The position numbers were made by a program, and so were the translations under genes. Shown here piece by piece: positions 25,734 through 40,592 of a stretch of 64,000 nucleotides of DNA. A model generated the notes under the pieces. It had not been told where the DNA came from. It ran no database searches and saw nothing but the letters and a program-made list of their open reading frames with translations. Source of the stretch: an uncultured Planctomycetales bacterium (GTDB lineage Bacteria > Omnitrophota > Gorgyraeia > Zapsychrales > JAHFFX01); contig CAZTCI010000002.1 in NCBI GenBank assembly GCA_964612665.1, positions 432,334 to 496,333 on the forward strand, written 5' to 3'. Every line of letters starts with the position of its first letter. Positions within the stretch are counted from its first letter, which is position 1.

Positions 25734-25985
25734 ATGCGAAAAATTATTAGCATGACCTGTGCTGTTTTTCTTTTAAGCAGTCTAAATTTGAATGCCGCTG
25801 TAACACGAGATGTCGCTTACCATGTTGCGGTCATTATTCCCCCGCACGTTGATACAGCTGTTCTTAATTATTTTCAACCTGAAAAAAACGATGCCAAAGC
25901 GGCCGACGACGATTTTGTCATCACAACTGAAAAGGTCATCCGGAATAAAAAACCGGTTATCATACAGACAATAACTACGAAATGA
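25734..25985 (+). CDS. Small secreted protein (83 aa) of unknown function
   Basis: GGGGA RBS about 9 nt upstream of the ATG, signal peptide MRKIISMTCAVFLLSSLNLNA. Confidence 0.55.
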   Translation: MRKIISMTCAVFLLSSLNLNAAVTRDVAYHVAVIIPPHVDTAVLNYFQPEKNDAKAADDDFVITTEKVIRNKKPVIIQTITTK

Positions 25986-26044
25986 GGGCTCACCGTTAAT
26001 CGGCGAAGTCCTCAGCCCTTCTGGGATCCGCAGGAGGGCAATCT

Positions 26045-26123: not shown

Positions 26124-29060
26124 TTATCGCCGCCTTACCGGAAAATTCAAAATAGAAGTGGCCCCTTCCTTCAAATCAACCGTATTTTTTATTTTAGTTA
26201 CGGGAAGATACTGTAACGGCAAAGAGTTAATATCTAAGGTAATCGTATGTTTCCCCGGCGGAATGTCGGTGAAGAAATAACTGCCCTGATAATCGGTCGT
26301 CATGGTTTCGTTGCGATCCAGCGTAACTTTTACGCGCGGGATCAAGATTTCACCGGGATCGACTTTATTGTTTCCGTTAGTATCTTCAAAAACAGCGCCA
26401 TAAATTCCTGAATGGGTGGCGACCGCAAAGTTAAATGTTTTTACCTTGTCCTGTTCAATGATTACGTCTTCATATAAAGGCGTATTGACCACATACCCGG
26501 CGGGAATATTTTCAGGATTGATGGCAATTGAAATTTTTTTGGCGCGGATCGTGGTTTGATAAAAACCAAGATGATTCGTCATAACTTCTCGTTCACCCAC
26601 CTTGACTTTAATTCCTTCCAGGCCTGGTTCGTCCGTATCCTTTTTATTATTGCCGTTTAAATCCTTAAAGACCGTCCCCTGAATGATGCCAAGCGGACTA
26701 TAACTAAATGGCAAATCCCAGGCCGAACGGATGCCCCAACGCAGATCACCTTCAGCGTAGGGATGGTTCTCCCGATTTTCCGCCCAAACATTACGTATTT
26801 CGCCGTCGACAAATAATTCAAAATCTTGTTTAGGCCGGTAAGATAATCCCAGCGTTCCCGAAATACTGTCTTCGCCTGCGAGAAAACTGTGCAAGCTTTC
26901 GCTTTGTTCTTCATTACGATAATAAAAGCCAATTGTGCCGGACAAGCGTTGGTTTAGCTGTTTATTATAATTAATACCCGTTGTATAAACCTGCGGGTTC
27001 GAACGTTCTTTTGAGGAAGTTTCCGTCAGCCATGAATATTCATAATTAAAGAAATAATAAAGCCCTTGTAAAATCCCAATGCGAAAGCCTGTGGTCAACC
27101 CATAACGGTCGAACTCCGAGATCGGCGACAAGGGAAAACGGCTGCGTTGATACACATTACCTACAAACGCCGAAAAAAGCTGCCCGCCTGAAAGTTGAAA
27201 GCTTTTCGAATATGTATCTGAGATTCGCGCGTCACGTCGGGGTGAAATCGTCCCGGGCGTATCAACATAAAAAAGATTAGTACTTAAGCCTGAAGTATCA
27301 TCCAACGGCACTTCAAATGAACTGCTTAAATCATAATTAATTTTATCCGGATGATTCGGGTTCGGAAAAGCCCGGTCTTTATAAATATCGAAATTAGAAT
27401 AAGCGCCCCACTTATCATGCCGATAATTCCAAGTTGCAATACCGCCCAGTTCTCCGCGGTCCGATGGAAAACTACTGACCGTTGTAAAATCTTTATCGAT
27501 GTTACGAAAATTCAACTGTAGATTATTATCCCGACCTCCGAACTGCGTGTTGACCAAGCTTGCAAACCGTTCCTCGTCGTGCGCCACTTCCGCATCAAGG
27601 TACATCTGTTTAAATTTATGACTAGTCTCAACCGAATAGGCCCTCTTTTTAAGGAAGTTCGGGCGGGCCGTTCCATAACCTTGGGCGTAATTCAAGGAAA
27701 CGGAATGATCTTCATGAGGAAACAATGTCGTGCGCAGACCTTCTATATAAGAATCCGTTCTCTTAGTAAGTCCTGGGACCAGATATCCAAATGTCGACTG
27801 GTCCAGCCCCCACAAGGCTGAATAACCTAACTTATTATGAAAGGCTTCGGCATTCAGCAACACACCGCGAAAATATTTTCCAGGAAGCGTGAGCGGTGTA
27901 AAATGCTGGGCCGCGTCGAAACCGCGGATATTGAAATCTTTAAAGTTACCTATCTTTCCATTGGTTAGTCCAACAGTGTAGCCCGTTGCTTTGGTCGTAT
28001 CTTCGAATTTATTAAAAATGGCAGAGGTGTCAAATTCACCATAAGGCGTGGCGCCATAGATTCCGGTATACTGAAGATAATTTAAACTCTGTCTTTTTTG
28101 GCTTCGAACACTATGACCAGTGTAATAAGAACTCCAATCAGACGAATAGGTAAATCTAAAAGGTTTTTCTTTTTCTTCCACTGTCTTTTTAGTTTCCGAC
28201 TGAGCAGTGATAGCCAAAGGATAAATGACCTTCACATTAAATGTCCAGCGTCCGTGCTGTTCCCAAATATGCAGTAGCGTTTCTCCTCGAGCAACCGCTG
28301 TTAATGCTAAGTGGTCATTGTCTAACCGTTTTATCTCAATAAAACCTGGTGTAATAATCAAGTAGCGTTCAATATTTCGGCCGGAAAGAGTGACCGTGGA
28401 ATTTAATTCTACATTTAATTCACTGCGCGGTTGCTGGGCCCATAATCGGTCATCGAGATATATCGTTTGCAGTTCCTGTCCACCTGCTTTTTGGATATGT
28501 GTTAGGCTGGGTTGCGCTTGATGAGGTTCTGATTTTGTGATCGGAAGCGTTGACTTTTTAGAAATTTTGGCCGGTTGAGATACAACAACGGGTGTAGTTG
28601 TGACTAATTCAACCCGCTGGTGGGCTTCGATCGGTTCTAATTGTTGTACAGATTGAGTCTGAACCGTTTGTTTTTGTTGAGATGGCCGTGCTAAGGAAGT
28701 CTTTTGGGAAGTCGCCGGGATAGAAGCGCGTTTGATTTCTTTGACGGAGAGTTTTCCAACAACGACTTGTTGTTTTACCGACGGTGGAAAGGTTTTGACT
28801 GGCGGAAGCTCCTCAATCTTCCCTTCTTTAAAAAGTTCAATTTGATGAAGATAATTCTTGGGTTCTTGAGCTTTCGGGTCAGACAGAGACGCTAAATTAA
28901 AATATAAAATGGCCTTATCGTAATTACCCTGATCAATTGCAGTCTTGCCTAAGTGAATGAGCTCTTGATAAGAAAGGACTTCATCACTTTGAGCGGGGAC
29001 GGGCCAAAACAATAAATAAACAACCACGACCATTCGAAGAAGAAAAGGAAGTTTGCGCAT
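26124..29060 (-). CDS. Large outer-membrane assembly-platform-like protein: signal peptide, TPR, secretin-N/CpaC_N-like domain, beta-barrel, two C-terminal Cna-B/SdrD-B-like beta-sandwich domains
   Basis: TVTLSGRNIERYLIITPGFIEIKRLDNDHLALTAVARGETLLHIWEQHG matches the pilus-secretin N-domain pattern; Y/G/N-rich barrel region; GTVFKDLNGNNKKD and GAVFEDTNGNNKVD repeats. Confidence 0.5.
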   Translation of the reverse strand: MRKLPFLLRMVVVVYLLFWPVPAQSDEVLSYQELIHLGKTAIDQGNYDKAILYFNLASLSDPKAQEPKNYLHQIELFKEGKIEELPPVKTFPPSVKQQVVVGKLSVKEIKRASIPATSQKTSLARPSQQKQTVQTQSVQQLEPIEAHQRVELVTTTPVVVSQPAKISKKSTLPITKSEPHQAQPSLTHIQKAGGQELQTIYLDDRLWAQQPRSELNVELNSTVTLSGRNIERYLIITPGFIEIKRLDNDHLALTAVARGETLLHIWEQHGRWTFNVKVIYPLAITAQSETKKTVEEKEKPFRFTYSSDWSSYYTGHSVRSQKRQSLNYLQYTGIYGATPYGEFDTSAIFNKFEDTTKATGYTVGLTNGKIGNFKDFNIRGFDAAQHFTPLTLPGKYFRGVLLNAEAFHNKLGYSALWGLDQSTFGYLVPGLTKRTDSYIEGLRTTLFPHEDHSVSLNYAQGYGTARPNFLKKRAYSVETSHKFKQMYLDAEVAHDEERFASLVNTQFGGRDNNLQLNFRNIDKDFTTVSSFPSDRGELGGIATWNYRHDKWGAYSNFDIYKDRAFPNPNHPDKINYDLSSSFEVPLDDTSGLSTNLFYVDTPGTISPRRDARISDTYSKSFQLSGGQLFSAFVGNVYQRSRFPLSPISEFDRYGLTTGFRIGILQGLYYFFNYEYSWLTETSSKERSNPQVYTTGINYNKQLNQRLSGTIGFYYRNEEQSESLHSFLAGEDSISGTLGLSYRPKQDFELFVDGEIRNVWAENRENHPYAEGDLRWGIRSAWDLPFSYSPLGIIQGTVFKDLNGNNKKDTDEPGLEGIKVKVGEREVMTNHLGFYQTTIRAKKISIAINPENIPAGYVVNTPLYEDVIIEQDKVKTFNFAVATHSGIYGAVFEDTNGNNKVDPGEILIPRVKVTLDRNETMTTDYQGSYFFTDIPPGKHTITLDINSLPLQYLPVTKIKNTVDLKEGATSILNFPVRRR

Positions 29061-29084: not shown

Positions 29085-29897
29085 TCAATCTCTTTCCTCA
29101 CGAATAACAAAATGACCGGAATCATCTTTCGTAAAATCGATCTCTTTCACTAAGCTATCGTCTTGCCCCAAATCAAAAGTAAGAACGATCGTATAAGCCC
29201 CAGCTCGAAGATTAGGTGAAATTTTTATTTTAAAAGGTGTCTTTTTGCCTGGCGGTAAATAAAATGGCTGAGTTTTCCCACGGTCAACAATCAGACTATT
29301 TTTATCCATAATGTAATAAGTACAGGATGGGATAAGAATGATGTTCCCGATATTGAGAAAATCACCGCTAACGGCATTATCCTTAAGGGCTGCGTTTTGA
29401 ACTTTCCCTGCCTTATTACGGTTCGAAGGTTCGACAAAAAACAGACTTCCCACTCGAGTGATAATACTTAAACCTGTTTGACTGCGCATAGCTTTGCTGA
29501 CGGATTTTTCAAAAAATAAAACACCATAATGACCGCCTTGAATATTATCTGGAACTTTGATTGAATAGCGGACTTTCTGTTGTCCATAAGAAGGCAAGTT
29601 AAATTCTTGAGGAGAAAATTGAACCCATTGATACATTGTGTAAGGAGTTGATCCGGCCGGTAAAAAATCTTTCTTACCACCATATGGAGGGATATACGTA
29701 AAATCTTCCCAATAAGCTCTAACAATTTGAGCTTCTGGAGAAGTATTGTGTACAGTAATCGTGCCACTAAGAGATTGCCCCGGCGTCACCTGAAGATTGA
29801 TTTTGCCTTCTTCAATCAACAGTTGAGCCGAGGCAGTCTTATGGCCGGTTAAAATCAATAGCGTCGAAAGAATAACGCTGATCAATATACGTTTCAT
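29085..29897 (-). CDS. Periplasmic PapD/FimC-like pilus chaperone candidate
   Basis: Signal peptide; LQVTPGQSLSGTITVHNTSPEAQIVRAYWED and HYGVLFFE match the chaperone N-domain pattern (R.I..........V.N.s..P.L.Q.W.D and ESLFYLN); ATG at 29897 (GTG at 29924 possible). Confidence 0.5.
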   Translation of the reverse strand: MKRILISVILSTLLILTGHKTASAQLLIEEGKINLQVTPGQSLSGTITVHNTSPEAQIVRAYWEDFTYIPPYGGKKDFLPAGSTPYTMYQWVQFSPQEFNLPSYGQQKVRYSIKVPDNIQGGHYGVLFFEKSVSKAMRSQTGLSIITRVGSLFFVEPSNRNKAGKVQNAALKDNAVSGDFLNIGNIILIPSCTYYIMDKNSLIVDRGKTQPFYLPPGKKTPFKIKISPNLRAGAYTIVLTFDLGQDDSLVKEIDFTKDDSGHFVIREERD

Positions 29898-29927: not shown

Positions 29928-30563
29928 TTATGTTGCCGTCGCTGAGATTAACAAGGTTCCGTCATAGCTTCCGGCCTTATCGGCATTAGAGAAAACTTCA
30001 CCAGCTGTCGGATCAGGAATTGGAGCTGTGGCATCTTTCGTCACAATTCCTAAATAAACTCTTAACCATCCTCCAGCCGTCTCGGTTGATGCAATTGTTT
30101 CACCATGAACATCCTTTAAGAGTTTTTTAGGCCCATGCGCACTTATAGGACTTTCAGTGGTATCCGTCGGATTGGGGCCAACAAAAACAACCTTCATAAA
30201 CGTGGCGGTTGATTTCCAACCTAGACCGTGGGCAGGATTATTTGGGTTAGCGCCTTCCGTATAAGTGACAACCGCGCTTGGACTGCCCGCTCCTCCGGAA
30301 CTTACCACATCAATGGCAAAAAAATGATCCGGAAGATAAATACCAATTGCGGGATTAAGTGTCATTGGCGAAAAGTTTAAAGTTGTTCCTGTGACAGCCG
30401 TAAAAACCGGCGGCGTTCCTTTAACCGAAAAAGCGTTAATACCAACACTCGTCGCGGCCGGAACTGTTGCAGAAATAACGAATGTCTTATCAAGGGCAAA
30501 ACTTTTGGCAGAAGCAAAAACTGCGACACAAAAAACAAGTAAACCTAGTAATATCTTTTTCAT
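29928..30563 (-). CDS. Pilin-like secreted subunit candidate (about 211 aa)
   Basis: AGGAGG RBS before the ATG at 30563; signal peptide; T/S/A/G/V-rich beta protein ending AGSYDGTLLISATAT, like the C-terminal G.Y..T.T..V.Y strand of chaperone-usher pilins. Confidence 0.45.
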   Translation of the reverse strand: MKKILLGLLVFCVAVFASAKSFALDKTFVISATVPAATSVGINAFSVKGTPPVFTAVTGTTLNFSPMTLNPAIGIYLPDHFFAIDVVSSGGAGSPSAVVTYTEGANPNNPAHGLGWKSTATFMKVVFVGPNPTDTTESPISAHGPKKLLKDVHGETIASTETAGGWLRVYLGIVTKDATAPIPDPTAGEVFSNADKAGSYDGTLLISATAT

Positions 30564-30648: not shown

Positions 30649-32034
30649 CTACATTTCGCTTAGCGAGTACATTACAGCGAGATTGTAGTCTCCAGGTTGC
30701 ATTTCGGGATAAGGGCTTAATTGATAAAGTACCCGAAACGTTGTCAAAGTACCTTGAATATCAGAGAACAAAATTGGTACAGTCCCGGATGGTACAGCAC
30801 TAAAGTCATTAAATTCGGTCTTTCCCGTTTGACCTTCTAATACTTCAATCTTCATGCGAAAAGCGTCTGATGGAATTTTTTCTCCTTTTTCGCTGGTTAA
30901 TGATGAATTAATGTTTTGAGTTACCATAAACGGTTTGCCTAAATTAGTGTTAACCACAACTTTAATTTCTTTGATCTGACTTGGCGTTCCAGGCAATAAT
31001 TTTGAGAAACGCAATCCATCCGATGGATATTGTACATCGAGATTAAAGATCGGAGTCACTTCAATATTGAGATCAAAATCCACGGTTTCCGGGCGATCAC
31101 CTTTTTCAATCGTGTAACGGATTTTACCCCGGTAATATCCAGCTTTTTGATTGGTTAACGTTTTATCATCCAGCGCAAAGTCAACAATAAAGGAACCACT
31201 GTTTTCTGAAGCGCTGTAAAGTAGTTGATGCTTTCGTTCGAGGGAAACAGGATTCAAATAAGAAAGCTGTCCTTGATCTCCGGCCAGCTCGTGGGTCGAA
31301 AACACTAAACTTCCCGGAAGTAAATCTTCATCCAATTCATTGTGCGGAAATTCTAACACATCTTGATAAATGCGGAGATCGCCTGGATTCCCCTCGTACC
31401 CTATTTTGACATAACCTGTTTGGTCTTTTCCGTTATGTGTACTCAACTTGACTGATTGTTTTCCTGATGAACCTTCTATGGTGAATTTATTTTCCTTCGA
31501 CACTTCAAACGACATATTCAAAACAGCATCTTCAACGCTACCAGCGCCGATAGGACGCAATACATATTGTAATTTGCCAAGGTAATCACCTGACTGTTCA
31601 ATTTTGTTTTTATCGATATTATAAACGACTTGGAAGGAATCACTATCGCCGTTCGGATTTGAAGTATAAAGCAGTTGATCTGAATAACCGAAAGATGTCG
31701 GTTCTTGAACGTACAAGGTTCCGGCAGAATTTGAAGCATTGAGCGTATAAGTTGTTATTCCAGAGGGATTCATGGAGTAACCTCTTTCATTCACTAAGGG
31801 TTCCAGAATTCTTTGAAAGATCTGATACTGTTTACCGTCGTTTGAAATGATGCGTATGCGGGCTTCTTTATTGGCCACGGACTGGTTATCCACCCGTCCA
31901 AAACGAAGACTATTCCCACCTTCGACCGGATTTACGGACAGATTGGTTACAGCATATGTGGATACGGGCGCAAGACCAAAAAAGATCAAAAATAAAAGAT
32001 AGGGTAACCGTTGATTGAACATAAGAAGCCTCAC
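30649..32034 (-). CDS. Secreted protein with three tandem pilin-like domains
   Basis: Signal peptide; three roughly 140-aa repeats each ending with a G-[DY]-Y-x-G-x-[LI]-x-Y-x-[LI] strand (SGDYLGKLQYVL, AGYYRGKIRYTI, PGDYNLAVMYSL). Confidence 0.45.
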   Translation of the reverse strand: MRLLMFNQRLPYLLFLIFFGLAPVSTYAVTNLSVNPVEGGNSLRFGRVDNQSVANKEARIRIISNDGKQYQIFQRILEPLVNERGYSMNPSGITTYTLNASNSAGTLYVQEPTSFGYSDQLLYTSNPNGDSDSFQVVYNIDKNKIEQSGDYLGKLQYVLRPIGAGSVEDAVLNMSFEVSKENKFTIEGSSGKQSVKLSTHNGKDQTGYVKIGYEGNPGDLRIYQDVLEFPHNELDEDLLPGSLVFSTHELAGDQGQLSYLNPVSLERKHQLLYSASENSGSFIVDFALDDKTLTNQKAGYYRGKIRYTIEKGDRPETVDFDLNIEVTPIFNLDVQYPSDGLRFSKLLPGTPSQIKEIKVVVNTNLGKPFMVTQNINSSLTSEKGEKIPSDAFRMKIEVLEGQTGKTEFNDFSAVPSGTVPILFSDIQGTLTTFRVLYQLSPYPEMQPGDYNLAVMYSLSEM

Positions 32035-32121
32035 GAGACGACTTTATTATAGAGGAAAGAAAAACGAATGTAAAGAGAGTCTTATAGACGGGTGAGTTCT
32101 TAAAAACTATATTTTAAATGG

Positions 32122-36426: not shown

Positions 36427-36696
36427 TTAATTAACTTTTTCCACTTTGCTTAGTATCAGTGTAATTTGATTCTTAAAAACATCGAAAAAGCCGGCTTCAC
36501 TGGACTTAAAAATTTGCGTTTGGCCGCTGGGTTCTCTTAAAGTAATTTGACCGGGTTTAAGAGTGCTTGCCATCGGCGTGTGATCGGCCAGGACACCGAA
36601 ATAGCCCGCCTCGCCCGGGACAATGACCGATGTCACTTCACCTTCAAAAATTTTTTGCTCAGGGGTGAGCATACTTAAATGAATCGGACGTTCCAT
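36427..36696 (-). CDS. atpC: F1 ATP synthase epsilon subunit, short form (beta-sandwich only, 89 aa)
   Basis: N-terminal beta-sandwich sequence; C-terminal helical hairpin absent; directly downstream of atpD. Confidence 0.85.
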   Translation of the reverse strand: MERPIHLSMLTPEQKIFEGEVTSVIVPGEAGYFGVLADHTPMASTLKPGQITLREPSGQTQIFKSSEAGFFDVFKNQITLILSKVEKVN

Positions 36697-36699
36697 AAA

Positions 36700-38974
<2,275 letters not shown>

Positions 38975-39065
38975 ATTTAGTAATTCTTTTTAAACTTCAT
39001 GTCTCAATGCTGCAGGCTTCATAAGCTGTACGGCATGAAGCTTGCGGCTTTAAATTTATAAAATA

Positions 39066-40592
39066 TTATTTCGTTTTCACAAATTGATGCTTAAAAGCAG
39101 CTAAAGCTTGATTCAATTTTAAGCGAAGATCGTCGGACAGTTCTTTTTTCGTTTCAATTTCGTGAATGATGGCGGAATATTTTTCCTGAATATATTTATT
39201 AAATTCAATTTCAAAACGGTTAATTTGGGAAACAGGCAAATCATCCAGAAAGCCGTTAACCCCGGCGTAGATAATTAAAACTTCACGCGCGACCGACAAC
39301 GGATCGTATTGGCCTTGCTTTAAAATTTCAACCATCCGCTCGCCGCGGGTCAATTGCATTTGGGTGGCTTTATCGAGTTCCGAACCAAATTTGGTGAAAG
39401 CGACCAGTTCCTTATACTGCGCTAAATCCAATCGCAATTTTCCGGCGACTTGACGCATGGCTTTAGTTTGAGCTTTACCGCCCACACGTGAAACCGACAA
39501 ACCGACGTTAATGGCCGGACGAACACCGCTATAAAAAAGATCGTTGTCCAAAAAGATCTGACCGTCGGTAATAGAAATAACATTAGTTGGAATATAACTT
39601 GTAATGTCCCCTGCTTGCGTTTCAATTAAAGGAAGTGCGGTTAAAGATCCGGCGCCCAAATTATCATGCAGTTTGGCGGCGCGTTCAAGCAAACGCGAAT
39701 GAAGATAAAAAACATCGCCCGGATAAGCTTCACGGCCCGGCGGCCGGCGCAGCAACAATGATAATTGACGGTACGCTTGAGCGTGTTTGGAAAGATCATC
39801 GTAAATAACCAACGCATTTTGACCAGCATACATAAATTCTTCACCGATCGCGCAGCCAGCGTAAGGCGCTAAATATTGCATGGATGCTGAATCCCGCGCG
39901 GAGGCGCAGACAATCGTTGTGTAAGCCAACGCGCCATGCTCTTCTAAAATTTGCGCCAGCCCAACGACGTTTGAAATCTTTTGACCAATGGCAACATAAA
40001 TACAATAAACGCCAGAATTTTTTTGATTCATAATCGTATCAACGACAATCGCCGTCTTTCCGGTCTGGCGGTCACCGATAATTAATTCGCGCTGTCCTAA
40101 ACCAATTGGAATCATGGCATCAATTGCTTTGATCCCGGTTTGCAAAGGATCTTTAACCGGCTGACGGTCAATAACACCGGCCGCCTTGGATTCAATCGGA
40201 CGATAGCGGTCAGGAACAATCGAGCCTTTTCCGTCGATAGGATTTCCCAAAGCATCAACCACGCGGCCCAACATTGCTTTTCCAACGGGAACTTGAGCGA
40301 TCTTTCCTGTCCGTTTTACTATTTGCCCTTCCTTAATATTCTTATCTGGATTGTCGGCTCCGAAAATAATTACACCCACACTATCTTCTTCGAGATTAAG
40401 CACTAATCCAGTTGATTGATCTTCAAAGGTCACAAGCTCTCCCAGCATCGCCTGGTCAAGCCCATGCACCCGCGCGATGCCGTCACCGACCTGAATCACC
40501 GTGCCGATCGATTCTTGACGGAGTTTAGTTGAAAAATCTTGGATTTCTTTTTGAATAACGGCGGTAATCTCTTCTGGTCTTAGAGGAATCAT
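39066..40592 (-). CDS. atpA: F1 ATP synthase alpha subunit
   Basis: GDRQTGKT Walker A, 508 aa. Confidence 0.97.

Follow-up and report, generated by a model that had tools for sequence, protein, structure and literature searches.

A natural fusion of three pilin-like domains in a candidate chaperone-usher-type operon of Omnitrophota

Among the adhesive fibres of Gram-negative bacteria, chaperone-usher pili are the best understood. The pilin from which such a fibre is normally built has an immunoglobulin (Ig) fold without its last (G) strand, and the N-terminal extension of the next subunit supplies that strand; the usher is a 24-strand barrel with a plug, an N-terminal domain and two C-terminal domains (PF00577). 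In CFA/I of enterotoxigenic Escherichia coli (ETEC), a class 5 system of the alternative or alpha chaperone-usher branch, CfaA is the chaperone, CfaB the major pilin, CfaC the usher and CfaE a two-domain tip adhesin. Here we analyze a 64,000-nt stretch of DNA (“the window”; contig CAZTCI010000002.1, positions 432,334 to 496,333, forward strand) from a bacterium of the Omnitrophota, a phylum of ultra-small, uncultured organisms that are probably host-dependent or predatory. A gene at 30649..32034 of the window, on the minus strand, encodes a secreted protein of three tandem domains (hereafter, the tri-domain protein), which is probably the tip (distal) subunit or fibrillum of a very divergent chaperone-usher-type pilus.

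Chaperone-usher systems have been reported in Proteobacteria, Cyanobacteria and Deinococcus-Thermus only; the alternative systems are reported only in beta- and gamma-proteobacteria, and the archaic family is the one known to extend beyond the Proteobacteria (PMC4654587). A phylum-wide survey of Omnitrophota names type IVa and Tad pili and giant open reading frames (ORFs) as attachment gear and makes no mention of ushers or fimbriae (PMC10066038). We found no paper in the literature joining Omnitrophota with chaperone-usher systems or with an usher. By fold and logic, the cassette described here looks like a chaperone-usher pilus, with the alternative (CFA/I, ECP) and archaic branches as its nearest relatives.

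An earlier note on this DNA had suggested a covalently concatenated tri-pilin that might form a self-complemented tip or adaptor fibrillum. Four independent lines of evidence support such a tri-pilin as the tip of a chaperone-usher-type system: its predicted structure matches best an engineered CfaB trimer fusion complemented in cis; the fold of a protein encoded downstream is that of a two-domain PapD-like chaperone, with CfaA as its nearest match; the three domains come with two linkers, homologous to the N-terminal strand of a single-domain subunit; and both subunit families have C-termini of fixed length. Self-complementation survives in part, as domains 1 and 2 could be completed within the chain but domain 3 could not.

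Three homologous domains and two linker strands

The features of the gene are as follows (aa, amino acids).

30649..32034, minus strand: tri-domain subunit gene, a 461-aa ORF from GTG
31951..32034, minus strand: signal peptide, residues 1-28, cleavage after ...STYA, as read from the sequence
31552..31950, minus strand: domain 1, residues 29-161, following the signal peptide at once, without an additional N-terminal strand, and ending in SGDYLGKLQYVL
31495..31539, minus strand: linker strand 1, residues 166-180, AVLNMSFEV, with alternating hydrophobics; putative cis donor (G) strand of domain 1
31102..31494, minus strand: domain 2, residues 181-311, ending in AGYYRGKIRYTI
31048..31095, minus strand: linker strand 2, residues 314-329, VDFDLNIEVTP; putative cis donor strand of domain 2
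30652..31047, minus strand: domain 3, residues 330-461, ending in PGDYNLAVMYSLSEM, beyond which no further strand follows; putative open acceptor groove

The ORF and the three strands that the earlier note had quoted from it were confirmed, with the strands at residues 148, 298 and 447. The suspected internal repeat is likewise present: the protein consists of three homologous domains of ~135 aa whose similarity is far beyond chance. In Smith-Waterman comparisons against 300 shuffles, z is 11.4 for domains 1 and 2 and 7.3 for domains 1 and 3, and the pair of domains 2 and 3 taken alone is non-significant. With family profiles built from 69 homologues, hhalign relates the three domain pairs with probabilities of 99.2% (E 2.8e-19), 99.1% (E 4.9e-19) and 97.1% (E 5.5e-11). 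The G-x-Y-x-G-x-L-x-Y-x-L ending that had been ascribed to all three domains needs some loosening: each domain does end in the quoted strand, but that of domain 3 reads G-D-Y-N-L-A-V-M-Y-S-L and is without the second glycine.

Structure prediction bears out the expectation of pilin-like domains. An AlphaFold2 model computed with the family alignment has a mean predicted local distance difference test score (pLDDT) of 92 and shows a signal-peptide helix (residues 2-20) followed by three Ig-like beta-sandwich domains. In a Foldseek search of 350,542 PDB chains, the top match is 3f85 (E 9.6e-17 over 505 alignment columns), an engineered CfaB-CfaB-CfaB homotrimer fusion in which the donor strand of each pilin is supplied in cis by the next N-terminal strand. 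The CfaE-CfaB fusion 3f83, the CfaB-CfaB fusion 3f84, SafDAA-dsc and CfaE come next, with integrin legs scattered among them; the TM-scores are low (about 0.37), as expected where inter-domain angles differ. The Ig-like fold and the closeness to pilins complemented in cis are observations on the model; which domain each linker strand completes is inferred.

In the profile alignment, the first residue of mature domain 1 lies opposite residue ~181 of domain 2 and residue ~330 of domain 3, and segments 166-180 and 314-329 align with each other, with nothing equivalent before domain 1. Because domain 1 aligns from ~181 and ~330, the linkers are extra strands, of which there are only two for three domains. 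One terminal domain is therefore one strand short: either domain 3 is without a G strand or domain 1 is without an A strand. Each linker is modelled as an 11-residue strand with alternating hydrophobics (residues 168-178 in linker 1 and 316-326 in linker 2), which starts 4-6 residues past the 13-residue motif strand of the preceding domain (six in the case of linker 1) and stops 3-4 residues before the first strand of the next.

A distant variant locus (L085) has single-domain subunits instead. One of them, of 177 aa, matches the profile of linker plus domain 3 (E 4e-8, 22 bits, in a search of the six L085 proteins only), and the mature N-terminal strand of this subunit, DIDVHVRVV, aligns to linker strand 2. 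Since the N-terminal strand of a single-domain subunit aligns to the linker, the linker strands are fossil N-terminal strands of formerly separate subunits. In the tri-domain protein they would complete the preceding domain, so that domains 1 and 2 are complemented in cis. The short hairpin geometry and the match to the engineered fusions both point to this pairing, and the opposite pairing would leave domain 1 permanently incomplete.

That opposite pairing belongs to a different view of the protein, as a non-polymerising surface or periplasmic protein with three complete tandem Ig-like domains (an adhesin or a binding protein), in which the linkers are the normal A strands of domains 2 and 3 and the neighbouring gene products export or hold it without donor-strand exchange. 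We consider this unlikely. Domain 1 would be short of a strand that is found in domains 2 and 3 and in the single-domain relatives, with nothing replacing it, and no explanation would be left for the fixed C-termini, for a PapD-like two-domain partner, for the top Foldseek rank of the cis-complemented fusions or for a small protein at the locus that carries the strand alone.

The true start of the gene is likely the ATG at 32022, which is preceded by a Shine-Dalgarno-like GAGG; the resulting 457-aa product is identical to database protein P0001. The tri-domain protein has no Pfam or NCBIfam match, and a 44-sequence profile of its family gave no match among PDB sequences. Its homologues form 53 clusters of 440-490 aa each, all “hypothetical,” and the named ones come from metagenome-assembled genomes (MAGs) of Candidatus Omnitrophota.

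The partner proteins and the operon

Four genes follow one another in the order tri-domain protein, 211-aa subunit, chaperone-like protein and 978-aa outer-membrane protein. The intergenic gaps are 24-85 nt, and the genes therefore form an operon, all four proteins of which carry Sec signal peptides. Elsewhere in the window there are no paralogues. The partner genes and the elements around them are listed here.

32046..32074, minus strand: promoter-like site TTTACA-17-TATAAT, directly 5' of the tri-domain gene; an 11/12 consensus match only
29928..30563, minus strand: 211-aa subunit gene, candidate major or shaft subunit; the ORF extends to 30641
30456..30494, minus strand: candidate N-terminal donor strand LDKTFVISATVPA of the 211-aa subunit; family consensus FxVSATVP
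29931..29975, minus strand: C-terminal motif strand AGSYDGTLLISATAT of the 211-aa subunit, ORF residues 223-237
29085..29897, minus strand: candidate PapD-like periplasmic chaperone, 270 aa from ATG; the ORF extends to 29924
29427..29456, minus strand: candidate G1 donor strand RVGSLFFVEP, chaperone residues 157-166, aligning with the G1 region of EcpB
26124..29060, minus strand: 978-aa outer-membrane protein, candidate assembly platform
26015..26039, plus strand: terminator-like hairpin separating the convergent genes of the outer-membrane protein and the small protein (9 pairs, of which 6 are G-C; T-rich tail); a consensus match only
25734..25985, plus strand: small secreted protein, 83 aa (~60 mature), convergent to the operon; candidate terminator or anchor

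The ORF directly downstream of the tri-domain gene has 237 aa, or 211 aa if translation begins at its likely ATG. Its signal peptide is followed at once by the FxVSATVP strand, which is conserved in 61 aligned homologues, and its family ends in the motif G-x-Y-x-G-T-L-x-V-x-A-T. The spacing between this motif and the carboxyl terminus is fixed: in 74 of 87 homologues the chain stops exactly 3 residues past the motif. The same holds for the tri-domain protein, whose C-terminus lies 3 residues past its motif strand in 69/69 homologues. The earlier suggestion of a conserved C-terminal F-strand motif as in chaperone-usher pilins is thereby upheld for both families. The 211-aa protein does end in the strand AGSYDGTLLISATAT, as first noticed, and so has the terminal motif in common with the repeats, but it has nothing in common with them beyond that motif. 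We also considered it as a fourth copy of the repeat domain and dropped the idea as unsupported. The protein has no Pfam match, and a PDB profile search returned chance-level matches. One to three copies of its gene adjoin the tri-domain gene at about 80 loci.

The tri-domain gene is the first behind the promoter-like site, which is the top-scoring one within 25.5-32.4 kb, and this is the usual place of major pilins in many chaperone-usher operons; on that basis the shaft could be a repeat of the tri-domain protein, with the 211-aa protein in a minor or tip role. We give this very little credence. The tri-domain protein has no N-terminal extension to donate, which by donor-strand logic confines it to the distal end, whereas the 211-aa family has a donor strand and is the gene duplicated in some loci. 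All subunits have type I signal peptides with A-x-A-like sites and no Cys lipobox, and Type V pili were ruled out on this ground: the FimA/Mfa pili of Bacteroidota are made from lipoprotein precursors with a lipobox and are matured by proteolysis.

The chaperone-like protein, encoded two positions 3' of the tri-domain gene, has the two-domain fold of a PapD-like periplasmic chaperone, closest to CfaA, and a candidate G1 donor strand. This segment follows a low-confidence loop (residues 141-156) and has the form R-x-G-x-L-F-F, in which R157, G159, L161 and F163 are invariant in the family. The best PDB sequence match of the family profile is EcpB (E 0.11), in an alignment that spans the F1-G1 region, and three homologues bear the JGI COG-based label “P pilus assembly chaperone PapD.” PapD_N and PapD_C (Pfam PF00345/PF02753) were found neither in the window protein nor among the top families of 43 homologues. 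K85, R157, R215 and Y222 are invariant as well. The chaperone residues that anchor the carboxylate are Arg/Lys in classical systems and, in non-classical systems, the F1 Arg together with an Arg and a Tyr of domain 2 (PMC4654587).

This family is large. An exhaustive profile search of a representative library clustered at 50% identity returned 6,666 clusters at E <= 1e-3, including 177 at <= 1e-30. Distant members pass the threshold of the Pfam WxLIP family PF06030; the window protein itself reaches 17.9 bits against WxLIP, below the cut-off of 27.3. Because distant members reach WxLIP, itself predicted to insert a strand into a partner protein (PMC10599100), the search suggests that strand-donating Ig chaperones may make up a superfamily of much greater size.

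Another reading is a WxL-cluster-like surface complex instead of a fibre, in which the 270-aa protein would be a WxLIP-type scaffold that inserts a hairpin strand into its partners and keeps them at the envelope, with the outer-membrane protein as the anchor. Four observations make this quite improbable: the 270-aa protein, whose signal peptide is cleavable, lacks a transmembrane helix at its C-terminus, the cluster contains no WxL domain, the organism is diderm with a dedicated outer-membrane protein in the operon, and the subunits have pilin-like termini. A true WxL cluster is ruled out, with neither a WxL domain nor a membrane anchor present.

The 978-aa protein consists of a signal peptide, one TPR, PF13629, a beta region of ~490 residues in which amphipathic strands abound, and two SdrD_B-like beta-sandwiches at the C-terminus. 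Several homologues score above the Pfam threshold for PF13629 (“pilus formation protein N-terminal”). By analogy, this layout parallels that of an usher, with a periplasmic N-domain, a candidate barrel and two C-terminal sandwiches. The sole usher-related signal is a weak CooC_C match (E 0.018) in one homologue. Inside the putative barrel, a stretch of ~100 residues (~310-410; 27800-28150, minus strand) is devoid of amphipathic strands, yet the family's most conserved motifs lie here: GETPYGxFDxS, DFNLRGFDA and SPLTLPGxxLRG. The stretch might serve as a plug or as an insert that binds substrate.

The small protein carries [FY]-x-[IVL]-S-V-T-I-P after its signal peptide, nearly the same as the N-terminal strand of the 211-aa subunit (the motif common to both is [FY]x[IVL]S[VA]T[IV]P), and at its C-terminus another conserved strand, V-x-L-x-T-I-V-V-K; it has no pilin domain. 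By hhalign, the two families are related with a probability of 95% with the signal peptides included and of 26% (E 7e-4) without them. Of the 79 loci, at least 31 have the small protein under a strict motif filter, and inspection by eye shows it in most, just past the outer-membrane-protein gene. We speculate that a protein with the strand alone has a modular donor-strand role, e.g., as chain terminator or anchor.

Conservation, proposed assembly and counter-evidence

A scan of one genome per species found 114 relatives of the chaperone-like gene, all plausibly from Omnitrophota. In the 79 loci that were kept, gene order is essentially invariant where the contig allows it to be followed, with the 211-aa subunit in 1-3 copies, so that the four genes are colinear and tightly spaced in loci of about 80 Omnitrophota species.

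We propose the following assembly. Three homologous Ig-like pilin units would have been fused head to tail, with the N-terminal extensions of units 2 and 3 becoming the two 15-residue linkers, and each linker would fold back beside the preceding motif (F) strand after a turn of 4-6 residues, completing domains 1 and 2. Domain 3, which ends at its F strand, would keep an open groove for the next subunit. All the proteins would be exported by Sec. In the periplasm, the G1 strand of the 270-aa chaperone would fill the groove of domain 3 and would also cap the 211-aa subunits at their grooves; at the 978-aa outer-membrane protein, this strand would be swapped for the FxVSATVP strand of an incoming 211-aa subunit, which would then polymerise by the same exchange. 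As domain 1 has no N-terminal extension, the tri-domain protein is unable to insert into another subunit, which is a property of tips. For the same reason it would enter the fibre first and come to lie at its distal end, forming a rigid fibrillum of three beads with covalent first and second joints. The small protein with its lone donor strand may end or anchor the fibre.

Several results weigh against this scheme. No subunit has significant sequence similarity to known pilins; neither the subunits nor the chaperone nor the outer-membrane protein matches a Pfam chaperone-usher family; and hhalign of each family profile against CfaA, CfaB, CfaC and CfaE gave probabilities < 2%. The 211-aa family is not significantly related to domain 1, 2 or 3 by hhalign (probability <= 6%). 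In the chaperone family, an invariant glycine stands at the position of the super-conserved F1 arginine of non-classical chaperones, as placed by the weak EcpB alignment. For the outer-membrane protein, the usher family of Pfam (PF00577) is matched by none of 9 homologues, a 60-sequence profile finds no PapC, FimD or CsuD in the PDB and returns TPR and SdrD matches only, and no usher appears in the names or precomputed Pfam domains of 64 homologues. Its only pilus-related domain, PF13629, is typical of the N-termini of Tad secretins. For the pairing of the linkers, and for a groove left open in domain 3, the basis is topology, not coordinates, and a mean-field direct coupling analysis (DCA) for the partner of the linker strand, on 117 tri-domain sequences with an effective number (Neff) of 104, yielded phylogenetic noise only.

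Against these results stand the four lines of evidence given at the outset, and we continue to regard a tip subunit of a divergent chaperone-usher-type pilus as the probable role of the tri-domain protein. A broader proposal is offered more tentatively, as a possibility that we rate somewhat below even: that the cassette represents a hitherto unrecognised, phylum-wide branch of fibre assembly by donor-strand exchange, with a triple-pilin tip naturally complemented in cis, a TPR/PF13629/barrel/SdrD_B pore unrelated to ushers, and a capping or anchoring mini-protein that consists of a donor strand only.

If the proposed role is true, a conserved and unannotated operon adds to the Omnitrophota an adhesion organelle of a fibre type unreported in the phylum, and the tri-domain protein is a natural example of the in-cis donor-strand fusions that structural biologists have built. 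The outer-membrane protein would offer a possible non-usher assembly pore for study. Under the broader, more tentative proposal, the chaperone family, with its 6,666 clusters, would link the Gram-positive WxLIP with the PapD-like chaperones of Gram-negative pili, and strand-donating Ig chaperones would be far older and more widespread than a Proteobacteria-centred view has it. The family alignments allow the annotation of four families of “hypothetical protein.”

Some loci depart from the common arrangement. At L085 (5565-11506), three or four single-domain subunits of 177-224 aa replace the tri-domain gene, the chaperone-like protein is longer (387 aa) and the outer-membrane protein shorter (777 aa); the cluster adjoins a giant GH8-domain protein and a 1044-aa protein to which no function is assigned. 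At L081 (1526-11223), one tri-domain gene is followed by three alternating pairs of chaperone-like and 211-aa-like genes, with no outer-membrane-protein gene inside this stretch as fetched. About 20 cassette loci are labelled “uncultured Planctomycetales/Planctomycetia,” and at L018 (JAIWAR010000056.1) the cassette lies on a contig binned into the MAG of a Methanosarcinales archaeon. These labels probably reflect mis-binning or coarse taxonomy of Omnitrophota contigs, and the archaeal bin could reflect an Omnitrophota cell physically associated with its host.

In the window, genes for the F-type ATPase epsilon, beta, gamma and alpha subunits (36427-40592, minus strand) lie ~4 kb upstream of the operon, after NDH-2-like, DedA-like and cation/H+ antiporter genes; a respiratory and a “symbiotic” type of this ATPase are described for Omnitrophota. 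Almost all long ORFs of the window are on the minus strand, and ARAGORN found no tRNA or tmRNA gene in it.

Comparison with known systems

CFA/I offers the closest structural parallels. CfaA has the fold nearest to that of the chaperone, the CfaB trimer and CfaE-CfaB fusions come nearest to the tri-domain model, and multi-domain CfaE is, like the tri-domain protein, without an N-terminal extension. At motif level only, the ends of the subunits agree as well: the N-terminus ITVTASVDP of CfaB compares with FTVSATVP here, and the C-termini AGNYSGVVSLVMT or AGQYMGNIKITF compare with AGSYDGTLLISAT or AGYYRGKIRYTI here. CfaB (plasmid p948) begins with VEKNITVTASVDP and ends with AGNYSGVVSLVMTLGS, and CfaE ends with AGQYMGNIKITFTPSSQTL, again resembling the 211-aa ends at motif level only. 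The differences from CFA/I are considerable. No component here has significant sequence similarity to CfaA, CfaB, CfaC or CfaE, and a place in the Fimbrial_CS1 pilin family or among the CooC-type ushers finds no support from Pfam (no match) or hhalign (< 2%). The three-pilin fusion is natural here, whereas those in 3f85, 3f84 and 3f83 are engineered; the gene order is tip, major subunit, chaperone and outer-membrane protein, against chaperone, major subunit, usher and tip in CFA/I; the outer-membrane protein is without an usher signature and carries TPR, PF13629 and SdrD_B; and the host phylum is Omnitrophota.

With the archaic (sigma; Csu) and ECP pili, the cassette shares EcpB as the best PDB sequence match of its chaperone profile (E 0.11, as above). 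It differs from them in having no SCPU or usher family matches and a tri-domain tip, and, of the non-classical carboxylate anchor, the F1 arginine shows no evident conservation. The WxLIP proteins (DUF916-DUF3324; PF06030 + PF11797) resemble the chaperone-like protein in their two tandem Ig-like domains, in the weak-to-passing Pfam matches across its wider family and in a predicted insertion of a strand into a partner. They have a C-terminal membrane anchor and WxL-domain partners and occur in monoderms, whereas the protein here is soluble and periplasmic and its partners are pilin-like subunits and an outer-membrane protein.

The two-domain tip adhesins FimH and PapG of classical chaperone-usher pili share a general plan with the tri-domain protein: whatever precedes the C-terminal pilin domain is complete, the groove of that domain is open (putatively so here), and there is no N-terminal extension. 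Their N-terminal lectin is unrelated to the pilin domain, whereas here all three domains are homologous. Relative to all of these systems, three features of the cassette appear unusual: a natural triple pilin complemented in cis, a non-canonical outer-membrane partner, and a mini-protein that would do no more than donate a strand.

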